Part shown: piece by piece, positions 20,281 through 54,842 of the stretch
How positions within the stretch are numbered: the stretch's first letter is position 1
Layout: each line of letters begins with the position of its first letter
DNA from: Dehalococcoidia bacterium
GTDB taxonomy: Bacteria; Chloroflexota; Dehalococcoidia; Lucifugimonadales; UBA3495
DNA length: 64,000 nt
NCBI GenBank assembly: GCA_965220505.1
Contig: CBDCQE010000003.1
Location: forward strand, 890,106 to 954,105
Direction: 5' to 3'
The notes under the pieces: model-generated
Database searches by the model: none
What the model saw: only the letters and a program-made list of their open reading frames with translations
What the model was told of the DNA's origin: nothing
Program-made: the position numbers and the translations under genes

Positions 20281-21801
20281 TCACAATCCGTCGATTTCGA
20301 GGGTTCGAACCTCGTCGGCGCTCAGGTCCGCCACGCGTATGGCGTGGTTGTTGGTGTCGGCGATGTACAGCAGCGGCTCCCGGCCGTCATCGAAGTTGGC
20401 GAAACTCAGTCCGCTGGGTTCGCTGAAGGTGGCCAATCGGTTCTCGCCGTCATGCAGGCCCATGGCCCCGGAGCCCAGAACCGTCTGCACGGAGCGGGTC
20501 AGCGGCAGGACCTTCTTGATCTTGTGGTTGTAGGTGTCCGCGATGAACAACTCGCCGTTGTGCCACTCGATACCGATGGGATGCTGCAACCGGACGTTGT
20601 GTTCCACACCATCCCGGTCTCCGAAGGCGAAGAGATCGATGCCAACCAGGGTTGCTACGCGACCGGTAGTCGGATCTATTCCCGCGCTTCTCACACTGCT
20701 GGTTTCCGAATCGGCGAAATACAGGATCGGGTTGTCGCCCCGGTCTTTGCCGACGACGATGCCGCTGGGCTGCGCCAGCGTCGCCTGGGCCAATGGGCCG
20801 TTGTCGATGTTCTCGCCGCCGGTACCGGCATGGGGACACACCGCGCCGTCGGCCAATGACAATCGCCACAACTGGTGTGTCCCGGCCATGGCGATATAGA
20901 GCGTTCCATCATGGTGCGTTAGATCCCACGGGCTGCTCAGGGCCACTTGCCGTCCGGGTCCCTGGGCCCGACGGTCGTGACCTTGTTCGCCGGTTCCGGC
21001 GATGGTATCGACCTTGCAGGTTGCCAGATTGATCCGGCGAATGGCGTGGTTCTCGGTGTCGGCGACGTACAGAGTGTCGCTCAGCAACTCCATGCCCTGC
21101 GGGTGGTTGAACGCGGCGCTGGCATAGTCGCCATCGACGAAGTCCTCGGCGCCGGAACCGATGACCCACTGAACCTGTCCGTGCAGATCGGTCACGACAA
21201 TGCGGTTGTGGTTGGTGTCCGCGATGAACAGACGATTGCCGGGGCCATCGGCCAGTACCTTGCCGGGGAACGCCAACGCTGATTCTTCTACCGCTTCCGG
21301 TACCAGGCCCAGGTCACGACGGTCAATCATGCCCTTTTCGTCGAACTCGGCGATCATCCGCCCCAGCAGGTCGTCGAAAGCTTCGTAGGGCAGTTCGCCT
21401 TCATGCTTGCCGATGACCTTGCCTTCGGGATCAACGAACATCAGCGTGGGCCACGCACGACATGCGTACTGCCGCCAGACCTCGAACTCGGCGTCGTTGA
21501 CGATAGGATGCTTCAGCTCATAACGCTGGGCGGCCAGCAGCACGTTGTCGGCGTACTTCTCGTTGGGGAACTTGGCCGAGTGGACCCCGATGACCACCAA
21601 CTCGTCCGCATACTTTTCTTCCATTTTCCGCAACTGCGGAAACACGTGCATGCAGTTCACTCAACAGTACGTCCAGAAGTCGAGGACCACGAGCTTGCCG
21701 CGCAGATCTTCCATGCTCAGCGGCCGGTCGGTGTTGATCCATTCGACGTTGGCGGGGAAGTCCGGCGCGTTGACGGTGCCGGCGAAAGAGCGGGTGGCCA
21801 T
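20281..21801 (-). CDS. thioredoxin-like (redoxin) domain + NHL-repeat beta-propeller protein with an in-frame TGA at 21663-21661 (candidate selenocysteine; alternatively a pseudogene)
   Basis: Hand translation upstream of the track ORF gives ATG 21801 (GGAGG RBS), [59 protein letters not shown]. Total length is 1521 nt, in frame. NHL repeats follow ([51 protein letters not shown]). Confidence 0.7.
21625..21642 (-). promoter_or_regulatory. SECIS-like stem-loop candidate
   Basis: mRNA UUUCCGC-AGUU-GCGGAAA (7-bp stem, 4-nt loop containing G) begins 18 nt after the UGA. Confidence 0.35.
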
Positions 21802-21842
21802 TGTGGAGCCTCCAGAGGTGGGTTGATACCGGGGTTGCGGCG

Positions 21843-22649
21843 TTAATCAGTGTGCCCTTGCCGCACCTCGCGGGCGCGGTTGATGATGCGCTGGGCGTCG
21901 GAGATGGTTCTCTGCCGGTAGTCAGGCTGGTCGGTGAGCAACGGCTGTTGCCGTCCTTCCTCCTCGTATTCCTGTTCCCCGGCGTACGCGGAGTAGATGT
22001 CTGGCGGGATGCTGAGCGAAAGCTCACGCAGTTCGGGGTCAACCTGCCGGATGCGTCCCAGCAGATGGCCGATGTTATGGGTGCGTTGGTATCTGACGCC
22101 GTGAGCTTCCAGCAGGGCTTTCATGCCGTGTTCCAGCGCGGCCTGCGCGTGCTGACCGATGAGCAAATCGATGTTCCCCAAATCAATCATTTGCTCAAAA
22201 GCGGTCAGGTGCGCTTCAGCGTGCAGTAGCCGGTTGTTGTAGTTCATCCAGTCGTACTCGCACTCCGTTTCGTCGTCTTCACCATATACGGAACCAGGCT
22301 GTTGCGGGACCCGCGACATGAAGACTCCATCGTGCACGGCGCGGGTTTCGACGCTGTTGACATAGCGGCGCCGGTACCGGAAGTCCTGCGTAGTGCGCCA
22401 TACCAACTGCACGGACACCGGGTATTCGTAGATGGCTTGGGCAATTCCTTGCGCCCATTCGACAGCCCGGTCCTTGTACTGCTGATCCGGCATCCCTGGG
22501 TTTATGAGCATGATGTCGATGTCGGAGCGGCGTTCTTGATAGTCACCCCGGGCCCGTGATCCAAAGAGGATGGCGGCCAACGGCTGCTCCCGCTCGTACA
22601 CGGCTTGCGCTACGCTCAACGCGCGCTGGTCGCAGGTGGCGGCGGTCAT
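21843..22649 (-). CDS. fused minimal nucleotidyltransferase (MNT) + HEPN domain protein
   Basis: Start at ATG 22649 (AGGAGA RBS). The N-terminus has [21 protein letters not shown] (GS-x10-DxD). The C-terminus has YQRTHNIGH (R-x5-H). Confidence 0.75.
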
Positions 22650-22711
22650 CAGGCTATTCTCCTGAGTTGCATTTCTACGAGGCCCCTGCCATGACGACAT
22701 GCGTGAATCAG

Positions 22712-23113
22712 TCAAGATTGAGCGATTTCCAAGACGACAACAAGCGCAAGCCCGGCGATGACTGCCAACCCAATCATCATTACCGACGTACCGATAATCT
22801 TCTTGTAGTCGCCCTGGTTACGGTTACCGCGCAAGACGACGGCAAGCACGGTGAGGGTAACGCCAACGCCGGTTGCGATTCCAACCAGGCCGGCGATGCC
22901 ATAATCACCAAAGTCCCTACCTCCCAGGGACCGGTCGTATATCACAATTGCCTGGTATGTCGCAGCGGTGATGGCGCCAACGCTGACCAGGGTTGCGCCA
23001 ATGCCCACCAGCCCCAAGAGGCCAACGACGACATCCTGATAGATCTGGCGGCGACTCCGCGACGGTCCGGGCGCATGTTCCGTCGCCCGGCTATCGCGGC
23101 GGCTGCGACTCAA
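22712..23113 (-). CDS. hypothetical integral membrane protein
   Basis: 133 aa, four hydrophobic helices, basic N-terminus. Confidence 0.55.
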   Translation of the reverse strand: MSRSRRDSRATEHAPGPSRSRRQIYQDVVVGLLGLVGIGATLVSVGAITAATYQAIVIYDRSLGGRDFGDYGIAGLVGIATGVGVTLTVLAVVLRGNRNQGDYKKIIGTSVMMIGLAVIAGLALVVVLEIAQS

Positions 23114-23615
23114 ATGCCAGAGTGGCGTAGCGCATGAAGATGGCGCCCACCGGTTCGCCCAAAGGCGCGTTAGCCACCAGAACTGCGATGACGTGTTCCT
23201 TGCCGGGCTCGCCGGGCTCTTCCAACAGGACGCGCTTGGGTGTGTTGTTGCCCGTCACCGCGCCGATGTTGCGGTCGATCTTGCCGTCGATGTACACCTC
23301 GCCGTAGTTGTCCACGTTGGTCTCGAACCAGACCCGGCAGGTGGAAACATCCTGGCCCTTCACCGTCTCCGGCATGGTGAATCGGAGCCGATACCAGGCG
23401 AAGGTGAACCCAACCGAGTAGCGCTTCTGGAAATCCGCTCCGCTCTCCCATCCGGAGTCGTCGTAGTCGGGCAGCCGGGCGTTGCTACCCAGCATCTCAG
23501 CGACGAGCCCCTGGTTGGGCTCACCTGGCTCGAGGCCCTGCGCTATTCGCCATCCGTCCGATTTAATGACGGCCAGATCGTCTTTCTGTTCAAGGTCAAG
23601 GGCTACTCGGGGCAT
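23091..23615 (-). CDS. jelly-roll (glycoside hydrolase family 2 sugar-binding-domain-like) protein
   Basis: Start at ATG 23615 (AAGGAG RBS). YDDSGWE ... FAWYRLRF ... VYIDGK pattern. Confidence 0.5.
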   Translation of the reverse strand: MPRVALDLEQKDDLAVIKSDGWRIAQGLEPGEPNQGLVAEMLGSNARLPDYDDSGWESGADFQKRYSVGFTFAWYRLRFTMPETVKGQDVSTCRVWFETNVDNYGEVYIDGKIDRNIGAVTGNNTPKRVLLEEPGEPGKEHVIAVLVANAPLGEPVGAIFMRYATLAFESQPPR

Positions 23616-23692
23616 GGGGGAAACTCCTTTATTGCTTTCATGAGTGAGATGGCATGGAGGAAAGTAAGATTGTTCTCCTCCGTAGCGCGCGT

Positions 23693-24418
23693 CTAGGACT
23701 TGAGGTGCTGGGCAAAGAACTCCAGCGTGCGTGGCCACGACCGGTCAGCGGCTTCCTTCTGGTAGCGTGGGCCGGTGAAGTCCATGAACGCGTGGTCGGC
23801 GTCGCGGTACACGTAGAACTGGTGCTCCTTGCCCAGGCGGTTCAACTCCTCGTCGAACCTGCGCATATTCTCCTGGGAGGGGTTCTCGTCGACCTCGCCG
23901 AAGTGGAACAGCATGGGGCAGTTGATGTTGCTGGCCAGCTCGAACGGTGGTGTTTCGCCCGCGCCCCAGGTTACCAGCAGGTTTCCGCCATAATATGGCG
24001 CGACCGCCGAGAAGTGGGGGTTCGATGCGGCGGCCAGCCAGGCGACCCGCCCGCCCATGCAGAACCCGGTCACGCCGATCCGGTCGGTGACGGCATCGTG
24101 GTTGCGGAGCCAGTCCACGGTGGCATTGATGTCCGCGACGATGTCAGGATCGCTGAGCACGTCCCAGGGGCGGGGCCGTGGATCAGCGTTCATCACCTCG
24201 TCTGAGTTGCGGTGGTACAGGTTCGGAGCGACAGCGGCAAAGCCTTCACCGGCCAGCCGGTCACAGATCGTGCGGATGAACTCGTCAACGCCGCCGCCGT
24301 GCTGCGCCACCACCACAGCGGGGAATGGGGCGGTGAAGCCCGCACTGCTGCTGGGCACGCTGGCGTACATATCCATCTCGCTGCCGTCGACGGTAAGCTT
24401 TTCCCAGAAACTGGCCAT
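23693..24418 (-). CDS. dienelactone hydrolase family protein, copy 1
   Basis: Start at ATG 24418 (GGGAGG RBS). GVTGFCMGG nucleophile elbow and DHAF motif. Confidence 0.85.
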   Translation of the reverse strand: MASFWEKLTVDGSEMDMYASVPSSSAGFTAPFPAVVVAQHGGGVDEFIRTICDRLAGEGFAAVAPNLYHRNSDEVMNADPRPRPWDVLSDPDIVADINATVDWLRNHDAVTDRIGVTGFCMGGRVAWLAAASNPHFSAVAPYYGGNLLVTWGAGETPPFELASNINCPMLFHFGEVDENPSQENMRRFDEELNRLGKEHQFYVYRDADHAFMDFTGPRYQKEAADRSWPRTLEFFAQHLKS

Positions 24419-24483
24419 AACGGTACCTCCCGTGTCTGTGAACTGAAACTGCCGGCGCCCTTCGGAACCTTTGCCGGCAACGT

Positions 24484-25224
24484 CTAACCCTTGAGATACT
24501 GCGCGAAAAACTCCAACGTGCGCGGCCAAGATTCCACGGCCGCTCCCTCGTGATACCTGCCGCCGGACGGGTTCATGAAGGCGTGGTCAGCGCCGGCGTA
24601 GGTGTAGAACCGGTGTGCCTTGCCCAGCCGGTCCAGTTCGGCGTCGAGTTTGTGCATGTCGTCCTGGGACGGGTTGGCGTCGATCTCACCGAAGTGGAAG
24701 AGCATGGGGCAGTCGATGTTGCTTGCCAGATCGAAGGGCGGGGTTTCTCCGTCGCCCCATGTGATCATCAGATTGCCGCCGTAATATGGAACCACCGCCT
24801 TGTAGTTCGGATTGGTAGCGGCGGCCAGCCATGCCACGCGACCGCCCATGCAGAAGCCGGTCACGCCGATGCGGTCGCTTTGTATCGCATCATGGTTCAA
24901 AAGCCAGTCGACCGTGGCGTTCATGTCGGCGACGATGCCGGGGTCACTGAGCAGAGTTGCCGGGCTGGGACGCGGACCCCCGTCTGCAGAGGCGGCAATG
25001 GCTTCTTCACTGTGCCGGTGATACAGGTTGGGTGCAACCGCCGCGTATCCGTCCGCCGCCAGTCGGTCGCAGATGTCCTGGATGAAGGCGTCCACGCCGG
25101 TGGCGTGTTGCGCCACCACTACCGCCGGATATGGAGCGGAATAACCGGCGCTGCTGGAGGGCACCGCCGCGTACATGTCCATTTGCTGCCCGTCTACGTT
25201 GATCTTTTCCCAAAAACTAGCCAT
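24484..25224 (-). CDS. dienelactone hydrolase family protein, copy 2 (tandem paralog)
   Basis: Collinear with copy 1 along its full length (MASFWEK..., GVTGFCMGGRVAWLAA, CPMLFHFGE). Confidence 0.85.
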   Translation of the reverse strand: MASFWEKINVDGQQMDMYAAVPSSSAGYSAPYPAVVVAQHATGVDAFIQDICDRLAADGYAAVAPNLYHRHSEEAIAASADGGPRPSPATLLSDPGIVADMNATVDWLLNHDAIQSDRIGVTGFCMGGRVAWLAAATNPNYKAVVPYYGGNLMITWGDGETPPFDLASNIDCPMLFHFGEIDANPSQDDMHKLDAELDRLGKAHRFYTYAGADHAFMNPSGGRYHEGAAVESWPRTLEFFAQYLKG

Positions 25225-25253
25225 TTATGAACCTCTCTGTTGTCGAATGAGTT

Positions 25254-25496
25254 TTATCCCATCTTGTCATCAAGTCTCGAAGAACAGGCATTTTGCCGCG
25301 AGTGATCTTCCCACGCTACCTTGAACAGCCAGTTCAACATCGATGCTAAGGCCAGAAGCGCCAGGGCAGCGCCCAGCGCTGACAACGCAGGGATGCCCCG
25401 TATCTCCAGTACGACCCGGAACACGATATCGAACAACCAGAACCAAGCGCCCGTGACAATAAGGACCGCCCAAGCCGAACGCAGTCTTCCCATCAC
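25254..25496 (-). CDS. small two-TM hypothetical protein
   Basis: 80 aa, two hydrophobic helices, locally lower GC. Confidence 0.45.
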   Translation of the reverse strand: MMGRLRSAWAVLIVTGAWFWLFDIVFRVVLEIRGIPALSALGAALALLALASMLNWLFKVAWEDHSRQNACSSRLDDKMG

Positions 25497-25497
25497 A

Positions 25498-25689
25498 TCA
25501 ATCCATTAGCATCCTGGCTATCAAAATCGTCGTGCAGAATCCGAGCACACCTCCGAAGGTGGACACCAAAATCCCCCGCCCAATTTCGTTGATGTTCGTA
25601 GGGCTCCCCACGACCGCCAAGAACGCTGCCACAGCGACCACGATGGCGATAATCACGGCGATTACTAGGACCAGATTTTTGTCTTGCAT
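25498..25689 (-). CDS. small two-TM hypothetical protein
   Basis: Start at ATG 25689 (GAGGTG RBS). 63 aa. Its stop is 1 nt before the next gene's start. Confidence 0.45.
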   Translation of the reverse strand: MQDKNLVLVIAVIIAIVVAVAAFLAVVGSPTNINEIGRGILVSTFGGVLGFCTTILIARMLMD

Positions 25690-25729
25690 GGTGCACCTCG
25701 GGCCTGTGCACAGACCATTCAGCCGTACG

Positions 25730-27064
25730 CTAAACCAGTCCCTCATCGCGCACTTGCGCCAGCGTCGCCTCGAAGGCGGCCAGGGTGGCGTCGATGTCCG
25801 CCTCGGAGTGGGTTGCGGACACCAGGAACGCGCCCCGGCCCATGATGTCGATGCCGTGGTTTTGCAGGCCGCGCTTGATTCCGGTTACCGCCGGCGTGGC
25901 GGCGGCTCGCTTGATCTGCCGGTCGACCTCCGGTCCGAATTCGTTGTCGAAGTCGCCCTCCGCCAGCGTGAAGTGGATCATGGACGCGATGCCGTAGGCG
26001 TGTCCTCCGACCTCCATGCGGGTGAACACCTCGTTGAGGCCCGCCTTGAGCCGGGCCGCCATAGCGTCGGCCTGCTCGTTCATCGGCTCGGCGGCGATGA
26101 GTTCCAGGCAAGTCGCGCCCGCCACCGCCGACAGGGGATTTCCGTTGAACGTCCCTGGATGATAGACGCGCTCGGTGTTGTCCCATTCAGGGTCGCCGCG
26201 TTGGGCGATCATGTCCACGATATCGGCTTTGCCGCCGACGGCGCCGCCGGGAAGGGCACCGGCCACGATCTTGGCCATTGTCGTCAGATCGGGGGTGATC
26301 CCGTAACGGACCTGGGCGCCGCCGGGAGATGCGCGAAACCCGGTGACAACCTCGTCGAAGATCAGGATCACGCCGTGCTGGTCGCAAAGTTGGCGGAGGC
26401 CGGCCAGGTATTGCGGCACGTTGAAAGGGAGCTGCCCGTAGTGTGCCCCGGTGGGCTCCAGGATGATTGCGGCGATGTCGCTGTCACGCTCCATGGCTTG
26501 CTGCACCGCGTTCAGGTTCCCGGCCGGCACGATAATCATGCTGCCCCAGGACTCCGCAGGAATCCCGGGGGCCGGACGATCGGAGCCGGCCATGGCGTAG
26601 TCGTGCCACCCGTGGAAGTGGTCCTGCAGTTTGATGACCTTGTTGCGCCCGGTGTAGGCGCGGGCCAGACGCATCGCCATCAATGTCGCTTCGGTGCCGC
26701 TGCTGTGGAAGCGCACCCTTTCCACGGCCGGCATCAGGTTCATTATCGCCCGGGCCCAGCGCAGTTCCTCATCGGTACACGCTCCGAGGTGGGTGCCCCG
26801 CCGGATCTGCTCCGACACGGCATCCGCGATGGCGGGATGAGAGTGTCCTAACAACAATGCACCGTGGCCGGACACGTAGTCGATGTACTCGTTGCCGTCC
26901 ACGTCCCACTTTCGTGGGCCCTGTCCGTGGGTGATATAGAGAGGAAAGGGTTCGGCGTAACGATTGTCGTGCGTTACCCCTCCCGGGAATATGCCCACGG
27001 CGTCACGATAACGTTCGGCGGAGCCGGCGTGGTTTGCGATGTACTGTTCCAGGATGGTGGGCAT
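25730..27064 (-). CDS. class III aminotransferase (glutamate-1-semialdehyde aminomutase-like)
   Basis: Start at ATG 27064. Motifs SGHGALLLGH, HSSGTEA, FDEVVTGFR, and a PLP lysine in TTMAKIVAG. Confidence 0.85.
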   Translation of the reverse strand: MPTILEQYIANHAGSAERYRDAVGIFPGGVTHDNRYAEPFPLYITHGQGPRKWDVDGNEYIDYVSGHGALLLGHSHPAIADAVSEQIRRGTHLGACTDEELRWARAIMNLMPAVERVRFHSSGTEATLMAMRLARAYTGRNKVIKLQDHFHGWHDYAMAGSDRPAPGIPAESWGSMIIVPAGNLNAVQQAMERDSDIAAIILEPTGAHYGQLPFNVPQYLAGLRQLCDQHGVILIFDEVVTGFRASPGGAQVRYGITPDLTTMAKIVAGALPGGAVGGKADIVDMIAQRGDPEWDNTERVYHPGTFNGNPLSAVAGATCLELIAAEPMNEQADAMAARLKAGLNEVFTRMEVGGHAYGIASMIHFTLAEGDFDNEFGPEVDRQIKRAAATPAVTGIKRGLQNHGIDIMGRGAFLVSATHSEADIDATLAAFEATLAQVRDEGLV

Positions 27065-27228
27065 TTTCCGTCTCCCCATTTGCAATTCATTAGGTGAAGC
27101 CAGCCGGACGTTGGTAGTGCTCCACCCGCCGGCCTCGATTGGTCTTTCGAGCCGGAACCCAGGCGGTCCCGTCGGAATTTACCGCTCGGGTTGAGGCCCA
27201 TTGTAGCACCGGCGTGTGGTTCACACAG

Positions 27229-33782: not shown

Positions 33783-34247
33783 ATGCCTGCTGACGCTTCA
33801 ACACACGAACCCTCGCAATTCGACGTGGGCTACGCGATCGCCCCGGTGCGACGCGTCGTCAGTCGAGAAAATATTGATGCCTACCGATCGGCTTCGGGCG
33901 ACCACAACCGTATCCACTACGATGATGAATTTGCGGCGGCCAGCCGTTTCGAGGGCGTCATCGCCCACGGTATGCTGACTTTGGCCATGATCTCCGAAAT
34001 GATGGCGGGCGAGTACGGTTCCTGCTGGCTGCGGTCAGGTAGCCTGCGCGTCAGGTTCCGTGGTGCGGCGCATCCTGGAGATCTTCTGGAAGCTGTCGGT
34101 GCGGTGACCAAGAGCGAATCGGCCGCTGACGGCAGCCGCGTAACTTGCAACGTAGAGCTTCTGAACGTTGATAATGGAAACAGAATCATCACCGGGTCGG
34201 CGACCGTGGTGTTGAGTCCGGCAGATATGAGGGAAAGGGCGGAATGA
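33783..34247 (+). CDS. MaoC-like (R)-hydratase/dehydratase
   Basis: SGDHNRIHYDDEFA and IAHGML motifs. Confidence 0.8.
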   Translation: MPADASTHEPSQFDVGYAIAPVRRVVSRENIDAYRSASGDHNRIHYDDEFAAASRFEGVIAHGMLTLAMISEMMAGEYGSCWLRSGSLRVRFRGAAHPGDLLEAVGAVTKSESAADGSRVTCNVELLNVDNGNRIITGSATVVLSPADMRERAE

Positions 34248-35275
34248 GCACGAACGGAGATATGCCGCGGGTACGCGTCGCGGTGGATGCGATGGGTGGG
34301 GACTTTGGTCCGCCGGAAACCGTTCCCGGAGTTCTGGCCGCGCTGGACGCCCACCCCGATTTGACCGTCATTCTGGTGGGGGACCCCGATGAGGTGCAGG
34401 CGGAATTGTCGCGCCACGACGTGGCCGGCCGAGCCGTTTCGGTAGTGCCCTCGGAGGGAAAGGTCGAGGATGAAGAGCATCCCATAGCTGCCCTGCGACG
34501 GAAACCGAAATCGTCAATCGCCGTTTCGATGGGACTGGTTCAGCAGGGCGTAGCCGACATGGTGGTGTCCATGGGCTCGACCGGTGCCACCATGGCCACT
34601 GCGGTGATGGCGCTGGGCTTGCTGGAAGGATTGGAACGGCCCTGCATCGGCGGCAACTTCCTGGGGGTGGCGCCAAACACCACCGTGGTCGATCTGGGCA
34701 GCAACGTGGATTGCCGCCCGTCGTTGCTGCTGAGCTTTGCCGCGCTGGGGGTCGCATTTTCCCGCCGCCGCCTGGGCATCGAAAACCCTCGGGTGGCGCT
34801 GCTCAGCGTTGGTGAGGAGTCGGCAAAAGGCAATCGCCAGGTCCAGGAGAGCCATACCCTTTTTCGAGAGAGCCATCTCAATTTCGTGGGCAACGTCGAG
34901 GGAATGGACTTTTTCACCGGCAAGGCCGATGTCATCGTGTGCGATGGGTTCATCGGCAATATCCTGATCAAGTTCGCGGAAGGTCTGGGTTCCGCGCTGG
35001 TCCCGTATCTCCATCAACGGCTGTCGGCCGTTCTGCCGGACGAGCAGGTGCAGCAAATCGGAGAAGCGCTGTGGACCACCATGAACCTGCCGCGCACCAT
35101 GGGCGGACCGCTGTTCGGCGTGGACGGTCTCGTCATGATAGGTCACGGTTCGTCGACGGCCAACGGCGTCGCCGGCGCGATCAACACCGGCCTGCTGTGC
35201 CATCGGCTGGAGTTGGTGGAAGGTTTCCGGCAAGAACTGGCGGAATTGCATCGCGCCGTCGCGCGCGAGGCGTGA
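34244..35275 (+). CDS. plsX: phosphate acyltransferase PlsX
   Basis: VAVDAMGGDFGP motif. ATGA overlap with the upstream gene. Confidence 0.9.
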   Translation: MSTNGDMPRVRVAVDAMGGDFGPPETVPGVLAALDAHPDLTVILVGDPDEVQAELSRHDVAGRAVSVVPSEGKVEDEEHPIAALRRKPKSSIAVSMGLVQQGVADMVVSMGSTGATMATAVMALGLLEGLERPCIGGNFLGVAPNTTVVDLGSNVDCRPSLLLSFAALGVAFSRRRLGIENPRVALLSVGEESAKGNRQVQESHTLFRESHLNFVGNVEGMDFFTGKADVIVCDGFIGNILIKFAEGLGSALVPYLHQRLSAVLPDEQVQQIGEALWTTMNLPRTMGGPLFGVDGLVMIGHGSSTANGVAGAINTGLLCHRLELVEGFRQELAELHRAVAREA

Positions 35276-35293
35276 AGGATTGGGTGTTCAACC

Positions 35294-36058
35294 ATGTACA
35301 CGATTGATTTGAGCGGTCAGGTTGCCCTGGTTACCGGCTCGTCCCGGGGAATTGGGGCCGTGATCGCGGCCCGGCTTGCTGCCGCCGGAGCCTCGGTGGG
35401 CATCAACTACCGGAGCAATGCCGCCGCAGCCGATGCCGTGATCGACGAAATCCGCGCCGCTGGCGGCGAAGCGCTGCGCGTACCCGGCGATGTTTCCGAC
35501 GAAAACACTGCGGAAGCGGTGGTGAAAACCACCGCCGACCGGCTGGGCCGGCTGGACATCCTGGTCAACAACGCTGGCGTCAATCGCGACCGGCTCATGC
35601 TGCGCATGACCGCCGCGGACTGGGATGACGTGCTCACGGTGAACCTGCGCGGCACGTTCCTCGCCACCCGTTTCGCCATTCCGTTGATGCTTCGCCAGCG
35701 GTACGGACGCGTCGTCAACATCTCATCGGTGGTGGGGCTCACCGGGAACCCGGGGCAGTCCAACTATGCCGCGTCCAAGGCTGGGCAAATCGGATTTACG
35801 AAAGCCATGGCGCGGGAAGTGGCCAGCCGGAGCATCACGGTGAACGCGGTAGCGCCGGGTTTCATCGAGGTCGGCGATGACGGCGGAATGACCGCCGACA
35901 TGACTGACGACCAGCGCAGCCAGGTGCTCTCGCGCATCCCGGCCGGGCGCTTCGGAGCCGCCGAGGACGTTGCCTCGGCCGTTCTTTACCTGGTCAGCCC
36001 GGGCGCCGGCTACGTCAATGGCCAGACGCTGACCATAGACGGCGGCCTTACCGCTTGA
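35294..36058 (+). CDS. fabG: 3-oxoacyl-ACP reductase
   Basis: Motifs VTGSSRGIG, NNAG, YAASKAG and PGFI. Confidence 0.85.
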   Translation: MYTIDLSGQVALVTGSSRGIGAVIAARLAAAGASVGINYRSNAAAADAVIDEIRAAGGEALRVPGDVSDENTAEAVVKTTADRLGRLDILVNNAGVNRDRLMLRMTAADWDDVLTVNLRGTFLATRFAIPLMLRQRYGRVVNISSVVGLTGNPGQSNYAASKAGQIGFTKAMAREVASRSITVNAVAPGFIEVGDDGGMTADMTDDQRSQVLSRIPAGRFGAAEDVASAVLYLVSPGAGYVNGQTLTIDGGLTA

Positions 36059-44132: not shown

Positions 44133-44795
44133 TCAGCGGCGATCCCGAAACATTTGCATCTCAGTCGCAACGGCGTCTTCGGGCAAGGGGGCGGCGGCTC
44201 GTGGGCCGAAGTTGCGGGCCAGCACGAAGATCTGCGCCAGCCGCTCCACTAGGTCGCAGACTTCCAGCGCTTCCCAGATGTCCGGCCCGACGCCAACGGC
44301 GCCGTGGTTGCGCAGCAGGGCGGCGTTCCGGTCGCCCAGCGCGGCGTAGGCCTGCTCGGCCAGTTCCTGCGTTCCGGGAAAGGCGTACTTGCTGACCTTG
44401 ATCGGACCGCCGATGGTCATCAGCATTTCGTCGATCAACGGCGGAATGTCCCGCCCGATGACCGCGGCCACCGAAGCGTAAATGGAGTGAGTGTGCGCCA
44501 CCGCCTGCACATCGGCCCGCTGGCGATAAATCTCGAGGTGCAACCGAGTCTCCGAGGACGGCGGCATGGGTGCCGGAGACACCGGCTCGCCATCCAGGTT
44601 CACCACCACCAGTTCATCCGGCTTCAGCCGGTAGTAGGGATGATGCGTGGGGGTTACCAGCAGCAGGCTATCATCCCCCGAGCCCGTCAAGCGCAGACTG
44701 GTGTTCCCGGAATATGCGCCCACCAGGCCGCGCCGGTACATCTCGCGGGTGGCCTCGGTGAGGGTGGCGCGCTGTTCAGCCCATTGGTCGGACAC
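44133..44795 (-). CDS. class II aldolase/adducin family protein (MtnB/FucA-like)
   Basis: GTG 44795 with a GGGGAGGA RBS, overlapping the hpnE stop by 20 nt. Motifs GNTSLR and HTHS. Confidence 0.75.
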   Translation of the reverse strand: MSDQWAEQRATLTEATREMYRRGLVGAYSGNTSLRLTGSGDDSLLLVTPTHHPYYRLKPDELVVVNLDGEPVSPAPMPPSSETRLHLEIYRQRADVQAVAHTHSIYASVAAVIGRDIPPLIDEMLMTIGGPIKVSKYAFPGTQELAEQAYAALGDRNAALLRNHGAVGVGPDIWEALEVCDLVERLAQIFVLARNFGPRAAAPLPEDAVATEMQMFRDRR

Positions 44796-46215
44796 TATTT
44801 TCCTCCCCGGTGACTGCGGCGGAGCCGAAACGCGACATAACCGCTGCAGCGGCATTATATCCGCTGATGATTGCCCCCTCCATAGTCGAAGGCCATCCCG
44901 TGTCCGTCCATTCCCCCGCCAAAAAGAGATTGGGCGAAGCAGTGACCGGACCAGGCCGGAGGCGCTGCGCCCCGGGAGTGCACCGGAAAGTGGCGTTTCG
45001 CTGTTTCACTACAGTCGACTTCAGCAGCTGTGCATCACGGGCTTTGGGGAACGCGGCGCGCATCTCTTTGGCGATGCTGTTCATCAGGTCCGGTCTCGGC
45101 AGGTCGATGTGTTCCCAGGCTGCGCTGATGGACACCGTCAACGACTGGCCACCGTGCGACCAGTTACCGCCTCGGATTAGCGAATCGTTGAAAACCCATT
45201 GCAAGGGGTTGTCGAGAAAGTAGCAGAACTCCCCTGCCATCACCGGTCGGTCGTATTCCAGATGGACGTTGACGATGGGCGAGGATTGCAAGCCGGTCAA
45301 CGAGTTGAAGGGCTCTTTTTCCGCCAGATGGCCCGGGATCAGGCTGGGCAGGATCCAGAACGGCACCGTGCTCACGTAGGCATTGGCTGCGAACACCTGG
45401 TGGTTCCCCGCCGCGACGCGCTGCACGGATCCGTTGGTATCAGCCTCGATGGCGCGAGCCGGACAACCGAGCAGCGTGCGCACGCCCAGCTTGTGCAGGT
45501 AGGCTTCGCTGGGCACGCCCAGAGCCTGTGCCAGGGACGCCTTGGGATACCCGAGGTTGATCTCGCGTCTGCCCCGCAACAAGCCGTCCTGGGTGATCAT
45601 CAATCCCATCGCCGCGCTGACGTCCCGGATGTTGTCGTTGAGAGTTCCCTCGATGATCACGTTCCAAAGGTTGTAGATGCACCGTTCGGACTGGCCGTGG
45701 GCTCTCAGCCAGTCGTAAAACGAGGTTGTTTCCATTTCAGGCGCGGCACGGTCGGCCCGCATCGCGGCAATCACCCCGCGGATCGCGCGTAACTTGTCAC
45801 CCAGGCTCAGGTGGCGATAGGTGACGAAAGCCGCCAGCAGGTGGGCTGGGGCGGGGCCGCCGAGGCCGCAGAGTTTGCCCCCGCGCCCGGCGCGGTCATA
45901 GACATCGACGTTCAGCCTGGGCTGCAAATGCCACCGGTCGCTGACCCCGATACGCTCCAGGAACTCGATGAGGTTGCGACAGGCGCCCACGAACACGTGC
46001 TGCCCGTTGTCCAACTCCCGCTCGCTCTCCGGGTCGACAAACGAGAAAGCTCGACCTCCCAGGGAGTTGCGAGCCTCGAGCAGCGTAACCCGCCAACCGG
46101 ACTCGGCGAGCCTGGCAGCCGTGGCGATGCCCGCCAGTCCGCCGCCAATCACCAGCGCCGACGGCTGGGCATCGCCGCGGCTATCGGTCACTTCATCAAG
46201 GGGCCCGTGAGCCAT
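44776..46215 (-). CDS. hpnE: hydroxysqualene dehydroxylase (FAD-dependent amine-oxidase family)
   Basis: VIGGGLAGIATAARL ... LLEARNSLGGRA dinucleotide-binding motif. Positioned after hpnC-hpnD. Confidence 0.85.
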   Translation of the reverse strand: MAHGPLDEVTDSRGDAQPSALVIGGGLAGIATAARLAESGWRVTLLEARNSLGGRAFSFVDPESERELDNGQHVFVGACRNLIEFLERIGVSDRWHLQPRLNVDVYDRAGRGGKLCGLGGPAPAHLLAAFVTYRHLSLGDKLRAIRGVIAAMRADRAAPEMETTSFYDWLRAHGQSERCIYNLWNVIIEGTLNDNIRDVSAAMGLMITQDGLLRGRREINLGYPKASLAQALGVPSEAYLHKLGVRTLLGCPARAIEADTNGSVQRVAAGNHQVFAANAYVSTVPFWILPSLIPGHLAEKEPFNSLTGLQSSPIVNVHLEYDRPVMAGEFCYFLDNPLQWVFNDSLIRGGNWSHGGQSLTVSISAAWEHIDLPRPDLMNSIAKEMRAAFPKARDAQLLKSTVVKQRNATFRCTPGAQRLRPGPVTASPNLFLAGEWTDTGWPSTMEGAIISGYNAAAAVMSRFGSAAVTGEENSVRPMG

Positions 46216-47123
46216 GCCCTGGCCATCAGCCCCAGCTTGGCGCCTTTGCTCAAGCTGATGCGCTCTTGAAACACGTCGTATCCGGCGGCTTCGATCTTGT
46301 TGAGCACTCCGCCGTAGATGAGGCCCAGGGCAGCCGGGCAGGCGCGGGATCTCGGCGAGAGGTACGGGAGCAACCGCCGGCCGCTGGCGAAGTACTCCCG
46401 GGCGCGGTCGATCTGGAATTGCATCAGGTTGGCGAAACCGTCGGTCACTGCTCGATTTTCCAAGTCCGCTTCAGTTACTCCAAACCGGTCCAGCTCGTCC
46501 TGTGGCAAATACACCCGACCGAACTCCCAGTCCTCAAGCACATCCCGGCAGATGTTGGTCAGCTGCATGGCCAACCCGAGGTCGATAGCGCCCTGGTGCG
46601 CTTCTTCGCGGCCGCGATATCCGAAAATGTGGATGCAAATCAGCCCGACCACAGAGGCTACCTGGTAACAGTAGGCGCGCAATTCTTCGAAATTAGCGTA
46701 CCTGGTCTTGACCAGGTCGGATTCCACGCCGTTCAGGACTTCCTGAAAATATTGCTCGGGGATGTTGTAGGTTGCCGCCACATCGGCTAACCCGATGAAC
46801 AGCGGCTGGTCTGCGTTGCCGGCGTAAGCCTGAGTCAATTTACGGCGCAGATGCTCGATGCGCTGCAGCTTCTCAGCGTGGTATCCTTCGGCGTCGACCG
46901 AGTCATCGCAATACCGGCAGAACGTGTATGCAACGTAGATGGCCCGCCGCTGCCGGGCCGGCAGCGTCAGGAAGGCGAAATAAAAATTGCGGGCTTCGCG
47001 CCTGGTTACCCGGCGGCATTCCTCATAGGCCGCTGCCAAAGCCTGCGGTGACGGTGAGGATGCTGTCGATAATGGGGTCGTCATGGGGCTTGCTTCAAGG
47101 TTTGGGCAATCCGTACCCGGCAC
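46188..47123 (-). CDS. hpnD: presqualene diphosphate synthase (squalene/phytoene synthase family)
   Basis: FYFAFLTLPARQRRAIYVAYTFCRYCDDSVD (DxxxD) motif. The start could be ATG 47084. Confidence 0.8.
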   Translation of the reverse strand: MPGTDCPNLEASPMTTPLSTASSPSPQALAAAYEECRRVTRREARNFYFAFLTLPARQRRAIYVAYTFCRYCDDSVDAEGYHAEKLQRIEHLRRKLTQAYAGNADQPLFIGLADVAATYNIPEQYFQEVLNGVESDLVKTRYANFEELRAYCYQVASVVGLICIHIFGYRGREEAHQGAIDLGLAMQLTNICRDVLEDWEFGRVYLPQDELDRFGVTEADLENRAVTDGFANLMQFQIDRAREYFASGRRLLPYLSPRSRACPAALGLIYGGVLNKIEAAGYDVFQERISLSKGAKLGLMARAWLTGPLMK

Positions 47124-48093
47124 CCAGCTTGTTTCCCAGCCAGGCAGACGCCAACAGCCACGCCTTCTGCCGTTTCGACAACGCGGGCCGGCGGCTCAGG
47201 ACGTCGTATCCCTGCCGGCGAATGGCGTGGAGGACGACCACGCCGCCCCGTGTGAAGAGGGCCACCGGCAATTGGGCCCGACGGTGCAGAGAATTAACCA
47301 GAGGCGCGCCTTGTTGGAACATGCTCATGGCGATTTCGCATTCGTACCGCAACAGCGCGCGGAATGCATCGGTGGCCGCGCCGTTCGCGATGTCGCCCTC
47401 GGTGACACCGAACCTCCTCATGTCGGTTTGGGGGAGATAGATCCGGCCTCGGTCCCGATAGTCACGGCTGACGTCCTGCCAGAAATTGGTGAGTTGCAGG
47501 GCGGTGCAGGTGTGGTCGGCGAGTAGTTGCCGCCGGCGATCAGCGTACCCAAACAGGTACAGGTACAGGCGTCCAACGGGGTTCGCGGAATGGCGGCAAT
47601 ACTCCACCACGTCATCGAGTGTCTCGAAACGCCCGAATCCCTGATCCATCAAGTTGGCGCGGATGAGGAGTTGGAACGGTTCCCTGGGGATGTCGAAAGA
47701 GGCGACCGTGTGCTGTACCGCGATTGATATGGGGTGCGTAGGTTGACCGGAATAAATCGCCTCCAGCTCGTCTTCCCACCACGCCAGTTGGCCACGGCGG
47801 TAGGCGGTGATCGTGTCGTCGAGTTTGCCGTTCTCAACTGCGGTTGCAACCGGTTCAGAGGGCAGGGATTCGTCGCCCAGGTCGTCCACCATCCGGCACC
47901 AGGCGTAGATTGCATAGACGTGCGGCAGTTTTTGCCTGGGCGTGATCCAGCCGCCGACGTTGAAATTCTCGTAGTGGCTGCGGGCCAGCGTTTCGCAGTA
48001 TCGGTACGCCTCGGCCAGCGTCACCGGCTCCGCGGATGCGATACTGCCGCCCCCGTCGTTGGAGGGGTTTCGCTCTTCAACTGCGGCTGACAT
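47095..48093 (-). CDS. hpnC: hydroxysqualene synthase (squalene synthase HpnC)
   Basis: SHYENFNVGG and YAWCRMVDDLGDE motifs. First gene of the hpnCDE trio. Confidence 0.8.
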   Translation of the reverse strand: MSAAVEERNPSNDGGGSIASAEPVTLAEAYRYCETLARSHYENFNVGGWITPRQKLPHVYAIYAWCRMVDDLGDESLPSEPVATAVENGKLDDTITAYRRGQLAWWEDELEAIYSGQPTHPISIAVQHTVASFDIPREPFQLLIRANLMDQGFGRFETLDDVVEYCRHSANPVGRLYLYLFGYADRRRQLLADHTCTALQLTNFWQDVSRDYRDRGRIYLPQTDMRRFGVTEGDIANGAATDAFRALLRYECEIAMSMFQQGAPLVNSLHRRAQLPVALFTRGGVVVLHAIRRQGYDVLSRRPALSKRQKAWLLASAWLGNKLGAGYGLPKP

Positions 48094-48116
48094 GTTGCTC
48101 GACGTCCGGAGGTCGC

Positions 48117-48560
48117 CTACTCGCCCACGATCTGGACCATGACCTCGCGTGGCCGCGGGTGGTCCAACTCAATGAAGAAAATACTCTGCCACTGACCGAA
48201 GGGCATCTTCCCATCGATGAGCGGGATGGTTTCGCTCGACCCCAGCATCAAATGCTGCAGGTGCGCATGACCGTTGGGAGATTCCTCCTCGGTCATGTTG
48301 ACCGTGCGGACCGAGAAATCGTTGTGCCGGTATTCCCCGAAACGGGGGCACATCTTCTCCAAAAAACGCGTCATGTCTTCAATCAATAACGGTTCGTTCT
48401 CGTTGATGATCACGGCCGCGGTGGTGTGGCGGGAGTACACCACTACGAACCCGTTGCTGACGCGGGCCTTCCCGACACAACCCTTGACCCAGTCAGTGAT
48501 ATCGATGAACTCGGGCGCGCCGGTGGTGTCGACTTTCAGGGAAAAATGTTCGGTTTTCAT
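48117..48560 (-). CDS. yjbQ: YjbQ/UPF0047 family protein (secondary thiamine-phosphate synthase-like)
   Basis: Start at ATG 48560. Motifs VVVYSRHTTAAVIINENE and NGHAHL. Confidence 0.75.
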   Translation of the reverse strand: MKTEHFSLKVDTTGAPEFIDITDWVKGCVGKARVSNGFVVVYSRHTTAAVIINENEPLLIEDMTRFLEKMCPRFGEYRHNDFSVRTVNMTEEESPNGHAHLQHLMLGSSETIPLIDGKMPFGQWQSIFFIELDHPRPREVMVQIVGE

Positions 48561-48598
48561 GAGCTGCACTCTGTAGGGGAGTGTGATGAACGGAAACC

Positions 48599-50701
48599 TT
48601 ATGTGGGATGAGTTGAGGTACGAGACTGCGGTTCGATAGGCCGAGAACCGTTGCCCCGGGGTCCGCCGAGCGGGTCTTCTTGAACCCGGCACGCCCGATA
48701 GCGAGCCAAAGCTATCAGCGGCCAGGTGTTTCGATAAAGGTGGTAGTTGATCATGAAACCCGCCGATAGCTCAGCACCCTGAAATCCGCGTTCGCCGGCC
48801 TGGGGGATTTTGTCTACTCGTTCGCCCTTCAGGTACCCCGGAAACCCGGTGCCGGTGAAATACGGCTCGTCCCAGTTGCCCCCCGCAAGTTGTGATGCCA
48901 GCAAGTATGAAACGCCACGGTGCGTGGCACGGTGGTCGCCGTATCCGGCGGCTACCAGCGCAATGATAGCCCAAGCGGTCTGGGAAGCGGTACTTGGCCC
49001 AACACCTCGTTGCGTCGAATCTATATATGACGCGCAGGATTCGCCCCAACCTCCATCAGGATTCTGATGGTCAATAAGCCACTGCACCGCTCGTCGAATG
49101 TAGGGCTGGCGCATATCTTCGCCTGTAGCCTCCAACGCCGGCAGGACCGCTCCCAAACCGTAGACATAGTTTACGCCCCAGCGGCCGAACCAACTACCAT
49201 CATCCTCTTGCTCGTGCCGGAGATAGCGATACGCCTGTTGCAGGAATGCCTGGTCGGTTTTGTACCCGAGTTTGCCGTACATTTCCAAAACATGAGCGGT
49301 TACGTCCGCGCTGGACGGGTCAAGAACCTCGCCAAAATCGCTGAACGTCAGGGCCGTGACATAACCGTGATTGTTGTCCTTGTCGAAGGATGCCCACCCA
49401 CCGTCCCTGCTCTGCATCCCCCGCACCCAGTCGAGCGCGCGAGAGATTGAATCCTGGCGCAAACGGTCCTCAGCGCCCGGCAATTTGCCAAGGCGCAGGG
49501 CGAGCACGACCTCGGCGGTATCGTCGATATCCGGATAGCAGTTGTTGTGAAATTCGAAAGCCCACCCGCCCGGTTGCAGTTGTGGCGCCTGCACCTGCCA
49601 GTCACCACCGACCAGTATCTGCTTGTCGACCAACCAACGGGTGGCCGATTCCAGCATGGGATCATTGGGAGGCAATCCGCTTTCGGCCAGCCCCTGAACG
49701 ACCAGACACGTGTCCCACACCGGTGATATGCAGCCCTGAATGGTCCAGTGGTCGCCCTTTTGGATGGAGAAACCGTCCAGGCCGGCGAATCCCCGGGACA
49801 TGGTGGGGTTCTCGTTATCGAAGCCGCACACGCTCAGGGCGATCAGGCTGTACACCCAGGGGGGCTGAATCCCGCCCCAGCTCCCGTCGTCTTCCTGATG
49901 GTCCAGGATCCAACGAATGGCTTTGCGTTCCGCGAAATTGCGCAAAGGGTTAGCCGGAATCCGATCGTAAGTCTTCCCCAGCAACCGCTCGGCCAGATGC
50001 ACCAGCCGGGGCAAATTGAACCCGGGTGGTGCGGGTATGGAATAATCGGTTGCAGACCGACCGTCGGGAAACAGTTCGTCGATGGCGTGCTCCGGCGCAA
50101 CGGGCCGAGCGGTACGGCGCGACAGCACGATGGACAAGGGAACAATGCATCCTCTTGCCCAACTGGCAAAACGGTAGATGCTCAACGGCGCCCAATCAGG
50201 CAGCAATATCATCTCAATCGGGAGGCTCGGGGTGCCGGTCCATTCCCACTGTCCGAACAAGGCCAGCCAAATGCGCGTGAACATCCGGGTCTGCGGCACC
50301 CCTCCCCGATCCAGTGCGAACTGCCGGGCGCGACTCATGTGGTCCGATTGCGGGTCTTCGCCGCACAGTTTCAGCGCGAAATAGCATTCCACAGTGGTGG
50401 ACAGATCGCCGGGAGCGCCGTAATAGATCGCCCACGATCCGTCGTCAAGCTGCTTGCTCCGGAGATAATTGACGATGTGCCGCTCGCGCTCGGGATTCCG
50501 ATGTCCCAGGAACTGGGATAGCATCACATACTCGGCTTCCATGGTGTTGTTCGATTCCAGCTCGCCCCACCAGAAGCCATCGGGGTCCTGAATCCGCCGG
50601 AAGTAGCCTTGAAGTCGCTCGATCGATGCGTCCAGCGCTTCAAGCGACGGTACTTCGATACGAGCGTCGGTCTCACTGCGGACGATTTCCTGAACAACCA
50701 T
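48599..50701 (-). CDS. shc: squalene-hopene cyclase
   Basis: DIDDTAEV (DxDDTA) catalytic motif and multiple QW repeats (DGSWxG, DGGWG). Confidence 0.95.
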   Translation of the reverse strand: MVVQEIVRSETDARIEVPSLEALDASIERLQGYFRRIQDPDGFWWGELESNNTMEAEYVMLSQFLGHRNPERERHIVNYLRSKQLDDGSWAIYYGAPGDLSTTVECYFALKLCGEDPQSDHMSRARQFALDRGGVPQTRMFTRIWLALFGQWEWTGTPSLPIEMILLPDWAPLSIYRFASWARGCIVPLSIVLSRRTARPVAPEHAIDELFPDGRSATDYSIPAPPGFNLPRLVHLAERLLGKTYDRIPANPLRNFAERKAIRWILDHQEDDGSWGGIQPPWVYSLIALSVCGFDNENPTMSRGFAGLDGFSIQKGDHWTIQGCISPVWDTCLVVQGLAESGLPPNDPMLESATRWLVDKQILVGGDWQVQAPQLQPGGWAFEFHNNCYPDIDDTAEVVLALRLGKLPGAEDRLRQDSISRALDWVRGMQSRDGGWASFDKDNNHGYVTALTFSDFGEVLDPSSADVTAHVLEMYGKLGYKTDQAFLQQAYRYLRHEQEDDGSWFGRWGVNYVYGLGAVLPALEATGEDMRQPYIRRAVQWLIDHQNPDGGWGESCASYIDSTQRGVGPSTASQTAWAIIALVAAGYGDHRATHRGVSYLLASQLAGGNWDEPYFTGTGFPGYLKGERVDKIPQAGERGFQGAELSAGFMINYHLYRNTWPLIALARYRACRVQEDPLGGPRGNGSRPIEPQSRTSTHPT

Positions 50702-50728
50702 GGTACTTGCGCCCCCAAATGTGAAACG

Positions 50729-52470: not shown

Positions 52471-52536
52471 CGTTCGCGTTGTCTTTCGGAATGTCCGCCA
52501 CCTATTGTGTCGAACGGATGCAATGCCAGGGCACGT

Positions 52537-53613: not shown

Positions 53614-53646
53614 GCTCGGTATCCCCGTATTTCATCGCCAGCGTGT

Positions 53647-54663: not shown

Positions 54664-54842
54664 GGCGGGCAGACTTGGCGCTTCTTTTCGCGCCCGGTCG
54701 TTGCCCGGCCGACCCAACCGGCTAGCCTCCGTGGAGGCTGTTGGTGTTGTGCCCATTGACGAAGCCTGCCGTGCGGTGAGGATGACGAGGTAGGCGCGGC
54801 GCGCGGTTTCCGGGTAGGGCCCGTCCGTTCCAACGTTGGCAA

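Follow-up and report, generated by a model that had tools for sequence, protein, structure and literature searches.

Does the single in-frame TGA in a thioredoxin-fold gene of a Dehalococcoidia bacterium end a protein, betray a damaged gene or encode selenocysteine (Sec)? The gene lies on the minus strand of a 64,000-nucleotide stretch of contig CBDCQE010000003.1 (positions 890,106 to 954,105), which was analysed as a whole and is referred to here as the window. Its frame is open from ATG 21801 to the stop at 20283-20281, apart from the TGA at 21663-21661, which is codon 47. The listing of open reading frames (ORFs) gives only the downstream part, from GTG 21660. An original prediction, made from the window sequence, interpreted the TGA as a Sec codon in the redox motif of a thioredoxin-NHL protein; our analysis supports this interpretation, and the TGA is very probably a genuine Sec codon furnished with its own RNA hairpin signal.

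The in-frame TGA lies at the active site of a thioredoxin fold

The start context on the minus strand reads ...CTGGAGGCTCCACA ATG GCC ACC..., from ATG 21801. Both the extension of the frame from GTG 21660 across one TGA to this ATG, with a GGAGG ribosome-binding site (RBS) ahead of it, and the conceptual protein of 506 amino acids (506 codons to TGA 20283-20281) were verified in coordinates and translation (Table 1). A Pfam search with the 506-residue product, in which C was substituted for the TGA, returned Thioredoxin_8 (E = 1e-14, residues 35-129), AhpC-TSA (E = 1.3e-11, residues 11-129) and Redoxin (E = 4.6e-8), the domain being matched by PF00578, PF08534, PF13098 and PF13905. Since the thioredoxin fold spans residues 11-138, its first part is encoded upstream of the TGA, and an ORF that starts at GTG 21660 is left without a complete fold; as had been proposed, the 46 added codons supply the missing part. 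The TGA falls at the first cysteine (Cys) of the CxxC motif, giving U-V-N-C, and full-length homologues indeed align a Cys at that point. The residue immediately before it, Cys46, is invariant in a codon alignment of 79 sequences (TGT in 65, TGC in 14).

The TGA is conserved and flanked by coding sequence on both sides

Orthologue DNA was collected from 80 GTDB species representatives, nearly all of them metagenome-assembled genomes (MAGs) of Dehalococcoidia, SAR202 and Chloroflexota, including many complete chromosomes of 3-5 Mb. Query residues 1-506 were aligned by tblastn in nearly all 80 genomes. The codon aligned to the window TGA is TGA in 78 of the 80 and TGC in the other two, namely loci L070 (labelled Blastocatellia) and L080 (labelled Clostridia), and a pattern scan for F-W-T-Y-C-TGA-[IV]-N-C recovered at least 120 further Joint Genome Institute metagenome contigs with the TGA form. 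Nucleotide diversity by codon position is 0.23/0.14/0.51 in the upstream 44 codons versus 0.30/0.22/0.52 downstream, and synonymous diversity upstream of the TGA is normal (0.45 versus 0.47). By these measures, the 46 codons upstream of the TGA evolve as coding sequence, and the region appears to be translated. TGA is at the same time an ordinary terminator here, ending 23 of the 56 predicted ORFs in the window, the gene itself included.

The original prediction had named a nonsense mutation or an assembly error as the alternative, that is, a dead gene or a codon that is truly TGC or TGT. A single A-to-C or A-to-T change would indeed yield Cys, as seen in one homologue, P0116. The same codon is nevertheless TGA in 78 of 80 independently assembled species and in the metagenome contigs, purifying selection acts on both sides of it with normal synonymous variation, and nucleotide-level constraint falls exactly on the hairpin downstream (see below). 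Because the TGA is conserved, both of its flanks are coding-like and TGA is an ordinary stop in this window, sequencing error, a pseudogene and a reassigned code are excluded; the probability left to a nonsense mutation or an error is negligible.

Database proteins present a different picture of the N-terminus. Among the matches listed, a protein search with the 506 residues returned about 115 clusters of 63-98% identity and 438-471 amino acids that cover only 90% of the query. The short proteins inspected start with MH[VI]FPQLRK, MFPQLRK or MEEKY, starts that coincide with the first ATG to be met beyond the TGA position, and the roughly 115 short entries are, to judge by these starts, gene-caller truncations after a conserved TGA. 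No homologue truly starting at the VNCMH position, which would have spoken for a shorter protein, was found. No full-length U-containing entry occurs among the best 120 clusters of this search, and P0116 is the one full-length match with Cys at the TGA position. Homologues with a Cys in the TGA column that share the N-terminus, for which the original prediction had called, are P0116, L070, L080, plant SOQ1 and human NHLRC2.

A hairpin downstream of the TGA is under selection at the nucleotide level

The hairpin begins 18 nt past the UGA, and the distance from the UGA to the apical loop is 25 nt. The published consensus for bacterial selenocysteine insertion sequence (bSECIS) elements demands a loop of 3-9 nt, a stem of 4-16 bp and a G at loop position 1 or 2, as a rule with G or U after it, as well as a UGA-to-apical-loop distance of 16-37 nt and a minimum free energy of at most −7.5 kcal/mol (PMC13188914). 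The window hairpin agrees with all of these, having an AGUU loop, 7 bp, a G-U at loop positions 2 and 3, a distance of 25 nt and a folding energy of −8.8 kcal/mol. The hairpin UUUCCGC-AGUU-GCGGAAA had been described in the original prediction with its offset, 7-bp stem and loop G, all of which are in place, and its distance had rightly been judged compatible with bacterial SECIS elements; to this agreement in geometry our comparison adds nucleotide-level selection and covariation. Folded by itself, the 18-nt hairpin has z = −3.65, with 0 of 200 shuffles as stable, and it is present in the minimum-free-energy fold of the region. No other AGUU-loop hairpin follows a TGA within the window.

Selection was assessed in the codon alignment of 79 Sec forms (78 loci and the window), in which the amino acid is both conserved and degenerate in 155 columns. 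Synonymous diversity, with a mean of 0.45, is zero in only 4 of the 155 columns, and these are the consecutive codons CCG-CAG-TTG-CGG (residues 55-58) that form the hairpin core; by our own arithmetic, the random chance that four such columns are consecutive among 155 is about 152 in 23 million. The flanking TTT has a synonymous diversity of 0.05. The hairpin codons TTT, TTG and AAA are minority codons of the gene (27%, 16% and 27%, respectively) and run counter to its codon preference. The core lies inside the conserved peptide FPQLRK, so that constraints on protein and RNA coincide.

Covariation was examined beyond the close relatives. Among 175 distinct TGA-form sequences (genome loci together with the metagenome matches listed, which is the scope of the figures in this paragraph), 148 carry an [A/G]GUU loop at the same offset, on stems as varied as CUUCCGC/GCGGAAG, CUGCCGC/GCGGCAG, CUCCCGC/GCGGGAG, GCGCCGC/GCGGCGU and UUUCCC/GGGAAA. 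In a set of 94 distinct 30-mers picked by loop sequence alone, 96.2% of cells are paired and 4 of the 7 pairs show compensatory changes. Two-sided changes number 32 cells versus 11.1 ± 2.4 after shuffling, with 0 of 500 shuffles reaching 32, and sliding the partners by 1-3 columns as a control lowers pairing to 34-71%. A simplified, mismatch-free SECIS test is passed by 141 of the 175 natural TGA forms (81%) versus 8% of 3,500 synonymously recoded controls.

The Cys forms L070 and L080 encode I-P-D-L-K-K at this place and have no hairpin (region at −5.3 and −4.5 kcal/mol, z ~0). P0116 reads TAC TGC TGC ... TTT CCG CAG TTG CGG AAA, a one-base change from TGA to TGC with the hairpin intact. This full-length Cys form (L081:383-1876, codons at L081:518-559) keeps the complete TTTCCGCAGTTGCGGAAA hairpin, which looks like a fossil SECIS left by a recent Sec-to-Cys conversion, or else the TGC looks like a base error in a 4-kb contig. 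The gene downstream of it encodes a 681-residue Thioredox_DsbH/Thioredoxin_7 protein.

Other TGA-form lineages, of the PELEA, PVL and PDL types, have different stable hairpins in the same place, several of them with G-first loops such as GGUCCUG and GGA, which suggests several SECIS types, or SECIS turnover, inside one gene family. Metagenome loci in the range L085-L204 (for example, L090, L102, L103, L108 and L168) have LPELEA, LPVL or FPDLxRLERK after CU[IV]NC, some with GGUC-like or GGA loops.

The 18-nt spacer between UGA and hairpin occurs in 55 sequence variants with zero length variation across the 79 sequences. It also bears on a second explanation, in which the TGA is a true stop, the products being a 46-residue peptide and an NHL protein of its own, translated anew from GTG 21660 or ATG 21651, and the hairpin serves coupling, re-initiation or mRNA stability. 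Gene callers predict this shortened ORF in the roughly 115 clusters among the matches listed, and a GTG does follow the TGA immediately. That GTG is not conserved, however: in its place, 51 of the 79 sequences carry an Ile codon, ATC or ATT, neither of which is a start codon, and the 55 spacer variants show no RBS-like conservation. The split would also cut the thioredoxin fold at its active site, whereas a single chain with Cys at that point is seen in all full-length homologues and in two crystal structures; the hairpin follows SECIS geometry, and SelB and SelA are found in the same genomes. We therefore consider a true stop very improbable and retain the Sec codon.

Selenocysteine-decoding genes occur in relatives with the TGA form

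The original prediction expected Sec-decoding machinery in this organism, and this was borne out for TGA-form relatives, in which SelB and SelA were detected, and not for the window. Pfam searches of the 30 largest window ORFs revealed no SelA, SelB or SelD domain, tblastn with the Escherichia coli SelA, SelB and SelD proteins (from NC_000913.3) gave no match in the window, and ARAGORN predicted tRNA-Sec neither in the window nor in the 80 genome loci nor at the selB locus; selD was likewise not found in the stretches searched. The absence of sel genes from 64 kb of a genome of about 4 Mb says little.

Among the relatives, tblastn located selB at L017:16361-18226, 5 kb downstream of the TGA-form gene on Dehalococcoidia chromosome OZ241860.1, and selA at L048:814-2187, 8 kb upstream of the TGA-form gene in another MAG. 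Both are recognized by NCBIfam equivalog models, with 358 bits versus a cutoff of 242 for the L017 SelB (TIGR00475) and 541 versus 268 for the L048 SelA (TIGR00474). No tRNA-Sec lies beside either gene within the stretch examined. Used as a query, the L017 SelB retrieved 120 close homologues, among them several with the name 'selenocysteine-specific translation elongation factor [Chloroflexi bacterium]'. One SelB is encoded on a contig of 4,301,394 bp (ENA and NCBI), the same size in bp as the chromosome of L004, whose orthologue is 91% identical to that of the window, and other SelB contigs equal TGA-form contigs in bp: 3,968,852 (L011), 3,726,370 (L009), 4,250,169 (L015) and six more. In addition, 'Dehalococcoidia bacterium UBA1141' has been listed in the publication on the BSepDB database among the ten bacteria richest in selenoprotein genes, with 49 (PMC13326102), and locus L023 comes from the UBA1141 genome. 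The lineage thus decodes Sec, and, judging from its close relatives, the genome of the window would do so as well.

These data also bear on the explanation that the UGA is read through by a near-cognate Trp or Cys tRNA, or has been reassigned in this lineage, with the hairpin acting as a generic read-through stimulator. The identity of residue 47 is deduced from sequence, and, in other systems, read-through can be promoted by a hairpin that follows the stop codon. Against this, TGA terminates 23 of the 56 window ORFs, including this very gene, and hence is not reassigned; the position is that of the redox nucleophile, where only Cys or Sec would be functional; the loop G and the UGA-to-loop distance are those of bacterial SECIS elements; and SelB and SelA occur in a lineage published as rich in selenoproteins (PMC13326102). 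Read-through without Sec is accordingly very unlikely, if a shade less so than a true stop.

Several observations count against a Sec codon with a SECIS hairpin. The hairpin is short (7 bp), and the 81 nt around it are not unusually stable (z = −0.89). Its four inner pairs never vary in close relatives, so that the covariation is carried by the outer pairs and by distant metagenomic variants, and 34 of the 175 variants, among the matches listed, fail the strict no-mismatch SECIS test. At gathering thresholds, Rfam identified only a tRNA-Thr in the whole window and no model matching the hairpin, and a search restricted to positions 21540-21720 gave only chance matches (E > 3); no Rfam match is expected, because Rfam has no general bacterial SECIS model. 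Neither selA, selB, selD nor tRNA-Sec lies in the 64-kb window, the machinery being seen only in relatives, and the links between SelB and TGA-form chromosomes other than that of L017 rest on identical sizes in bp.

The protein is related to NHLRC2 and SOQ1

In a sequence search of the PDB with phmmer, the best matches were the lumenal region of Arabidopsis SOQ1 (7djj, E = 2.2e-126, query residues 11-505) and human NHLRC2 (6gc1, E = 2.1e-116), which cover residues 10-505 between them, followed by DipZ, ResA and TlpA, which match the thioredoxin-like domain only. The domain order is that of NHLRC2 and SOQ1, an N-terminal Thioredoxin_8-type domain followed directly by an NHL beta-propeller. By sequence and domain order, the 506-residue protein is identified as a bacterial orthologue of the thioredoxin-like and NHL-propeller core of NHLRC2/SOQ1.

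Table 1. Coordinates of the predicted selenoprotein gene and its elements in the window.
Feature	Position	Strand	Details
Selenoprotein gene, complete	20281..21801	minus	506 codons and stop; ATG 21801-21799, terminal TGA 20283-20281
Shine-Dalgarno-like GGAGG	21809..21813	minus	7-nt spacer to ATG; putative function, from sequence
Thioredoxin-like domain (TlpA/ResA/DipZ-like, Thioredoxin_8), residues 11-138	21388..21771	minus	Pfam; PDB matches DipZ, ResA and TlpA; spans the Sec codon
Cys46 (TGT), immediately before Sec	21664..21666	minus	'CU' dyad corresponds to 'CC' of NHLRC2/SOQ1
In-frame TGA, codon 47, predicted selenocysteine	21661..21663	minus	First position of the U-V-N-C redox motif
Spacer between UGA and hairpin, 18 nt	21643..21660	minus	Codons V-N-C-M-H-V; constant length, synonymous sites free to vary
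Cys50 (TGC), predicted resolving cysteine of UxxC	21652..21654	minus	Invariant in 79 Sec forms; corresponds to SOQ1 C434
SECIS hairpin	21625..21642	minus	5' arm UUUCCGC 21642-21636, loop AGUU 21635-21632, 3' arm GCGGAAA 21631-21625; codons F-P-Q-L-R-K
NHL-repeat beta-propeller, residues 174-505	20287..21282	minus	Pfam NHL E = 6.8e-21; also matched by NHL domain structures of SOQ1 (7djm) and NHLRC2 (6g7w)

The hallmark of the NHLRC2/SOQ1 family is a thioredoxin-like domain whose CC(I/V)NC motif is placed in a cleft against a six-bladed NHL propeller (PMC6107167). The window protein carries it as C-U-V-N-C, with Sec counted as a substitute for the second Cys. When it is aligned to SOQ1 and NHLRC2, its Sec falls on the second Cys of CCINC, which in SOQ1 is C431, the N-terminal attacking position. 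The active-site context LDFWTYC-C/U-[IV]NCMHV is shared, SOQ1 reading LDFWTYC-C-INCMHVLPDL. Unlike SOQ1 and NHLRC2, the window protein has Sec for the second Cys and has no C-terminal domain, no HAD domain and no transmembrane helix. The beta-stranded C-terminal domain with its redox Cys pair is missing because the protein ends at residue 506, which corresponds to SOQ1 chain residue 513 of 667; most bacterial orthologues are without this domain (PMC6107167), and the bacterial branch is therefore not defined by it. The SOQ1 redox pair, C431-C434 (midpoint potential, −274 mV), donates electrons to the C-terminal domain, which is reported to act as a methionine sulfoxide reductase (bioRxiv 10.1101/2024.11.01.621559). 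The chemistry of the family is debated, with negative insulin-reduction assays on the one hand and the reported methionine sulfoxide reductase activity on the other (PMC6107167; bioRxiv 10.1101/2024.11.01.621559).

The protein shares with bacterial UxxC selenoproteins of the thioredoxin fold the Sec at the first CxxC position, the Cys homologues and an in-frame SECIS after the UGA (PMC13188914, PMC9312934, PMC2398784). Catalogued UxxC families include a Prx-like thiol:disulfide oxidoreductase (PF00578), a thiol:disulfide interchange protein (PF13098) and Redoxin (PF08534) (PMC13188914, PMC9312934, PMC2398784). The features of the first of these, PF00578 and a UxxC motif, are both present here (AhpC-TSA, E = 1.3e-11; U47-x-x-C50). 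Compared by description, however, the catalogued families are single-domain proteins, unlike the window protein with its 330-residue NHL beta-propeller and C-U-[VI]-N-C motif. The hairpin resembles the consensus bSECIS (bSECISearch; prototype, E. coli fdhF) in being a stem-loop in the coding sequence just 3' of the UGA, with a small loop and an early G followed by U, and differs from it in its compact, perfect 7-bp stem without a bulged U and in its location within the conserved peptide FPQLRK.

The DipZ/ResA/TlpA reductases have the same thioredoxin-like subfamily fold, and the SCINC of DipZ resembles CU[VI]NC. Unlike these Cys proteins, which are exported or membrane-anchored and act in cytochrome c maturation, the window protein has an NHL propeller and no signal or membrane segment. 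By inspection, its N-terminus has no hydrophobic segment of either kind, and the protein is therefore presumably cytoplasmic.

A possible course of decoding and catalysis

As the ribosome reaches UGA47, SelB-GTP carrying Sec-tRNA(Sec) would bind the mRNA hairpin, and Sec would be inserted at codon 47 instead of termination, while the TGA at 20283-20281, which has no hairpin, would terminate the same gene. The resulting C46-U47-V-N-C50 would sit at the N-terminus of the first helix of the thioredoxin fold, facing the cleft with the NHL propeller. There, the U47 selenolate could attack an oxidised substrate bound between the thioredoxin fold and the propeller, and C50 would resolve the intermediate, giving a selenenylsulfide to be re-reduced by a cellular thiol system. 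By analogy with SOQ1, the reaction may be a protein thiol-disulfide reduction or a reduction of the methionine-sulfoxide type on a client held by the propeller.

Genomic neighbourhood and other features of the window

In about 46 of the 80 loci, the upstream neighbours are a 215-residue ORF, two dienelactone hydrolases and a class-III aminotransferase. In the window, this syntenic block occupies 23091-27085 (minus strand); it is kept in about 44-47 of the 80 genomes, has the dienelactone hydrolase genes in tandem and shows no obvious functional link to the selenoprotein gene. The 215-residue ORF (23091-23738) has no Pfam match, and its true start is probably an internal Met (MPRVALDLEQ...). 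No conserved redox partner flanks the gene in the synteny of the 80 loci, in agreement with a previous study in which no conserved operon was found for the family (PMC6107167).

Between the selenoprotein gene and ORF 23091-23738, the window has a gene with nucleotidyltransferase and HEPN domains (290 residues, toxin-antitoxin-like) and a 133-residue ORF (21843-23113, minus strand). The upstream neighbour directly abuts the selenoprotein gene in L004, L006 and L008, which gives the nucleotidyltransferase/HEPN segment the look of a small mobile insertion.

When the window was crudely scanned for further genes with an in-frame TGA, only off-frame noise and adjacent same-frame genes emerged, and no second convincing selenoprotein gene. 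One candidate, plsX/fabG (34244-36058, plus strand), was rejected as two adjacent same-frame genes parted by one TGA and a few codons. Another, a 193-residue ORF (58405-58986, plus strand) with a GC content at third codon positions of 0.85 and a terminal TGA with a Cys codon after it (...WVKP*CADP...), was not counted as a selenoprotein gene, as the frame downstream looks non-coding; a gene for a tryptophan-halogenase-like flavoprotein lies opposite (59002-60582, minus strand).

Elsewhere, the window contains a triterpenoid cluster of the hopanoid type (47095-54756, minus strand), with genes for squalene/phytoene synthase, squalene-hopene cyclase, an NAD-dependent epimerase, a radical-SAM DUF3463 (HpnH-like) protein and a polyprenyl synthetase, and, near it, a gene for an amine-oxidase-type flavoprotein (44776-46215). 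The only RNA gene found in the window is a tRNA-Thr (CGU) at 57268-57343 (minus strand).

Relation to known selenoproteins and significance

By kind, this is a standard bacterial selenoprotein: its thioredoxin fold bears UxxC, it has homologues with Cys, and its bSECIS is canonical. The selenoprotein reviews and database papers searched, a search that did not extend to BSepDB itself, do not mention NHL, NHLRC2 or SOQ1; the motif WTYCU does not occur among the Global Ocean Sampling (GOS) supplementary sequences examined; no NCBIfam selenoprotein model matches the protein; and the NHLRC2 and SOQ1 literature examined mentions no Sec form of the family. To our knowledge, this is the first Sec form linked to the NHLRC2/SOQ1 family. 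It may already be present in BSepDB under a domain-based name, or may have been absorbed into the PF00578, PF13098 or PF08534 families by a domain scheme. Whether it represents an uncatalogued selenoprotein family is close to evenly balanced, with a slight tilt towards the negative; such a family would consist of Sec-containing NHLRC2/SOQ1 orthologues that are near-universal in SAR202-type Dehalococcoidia (78 of 80), with other lineages evolving different SECIS hairpins at the same position.

The most immediate consequence concerns annotation. Truncated products are named 'alkyl hydroperoxide reductase' in GenBank (MDE2787383.1, MBM3941755.1 and PKB67894.1), and, with the TGA read as Sec, hundreds of public gene models are about 50 residues short and have lost the active site, the correct product being a 506-residue selenoprotein. 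The gene also offers a clean case of a SECIS overlapping a conserved peptide (FPQLRK), with a putative fossil SECIS in a Cys revertant and alternative hairpins elsewhere.

The NHLRC2/SOQ1 family spans bacteria to humans, is essential in mammals, is linked through its human member to FINCA disease and regulates photoprotection in plants (PMC6107167; bioRxiv 10.1101/2024.11.01.621559). Cys gives way to Sec almost exclusively at redox positions that are catalytic, and, if the reading is true, the first Cys of the CxxC motif in NHLRC2/SOQ1 would be the catalytic nucleophile; a natural Sec at the position of SOQ1 C431 argues for redox catalysis by that residue. The greater reactivity of the Sec form would then help in the search for the substrate of the family. 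For the organisms themselves, it would be a near-universal addition to the selenoproteomes, already large, that SAR202 and sponge-associated Dehalococcoidia possess, implying a demand for selenium in abundant ocean bacteria.

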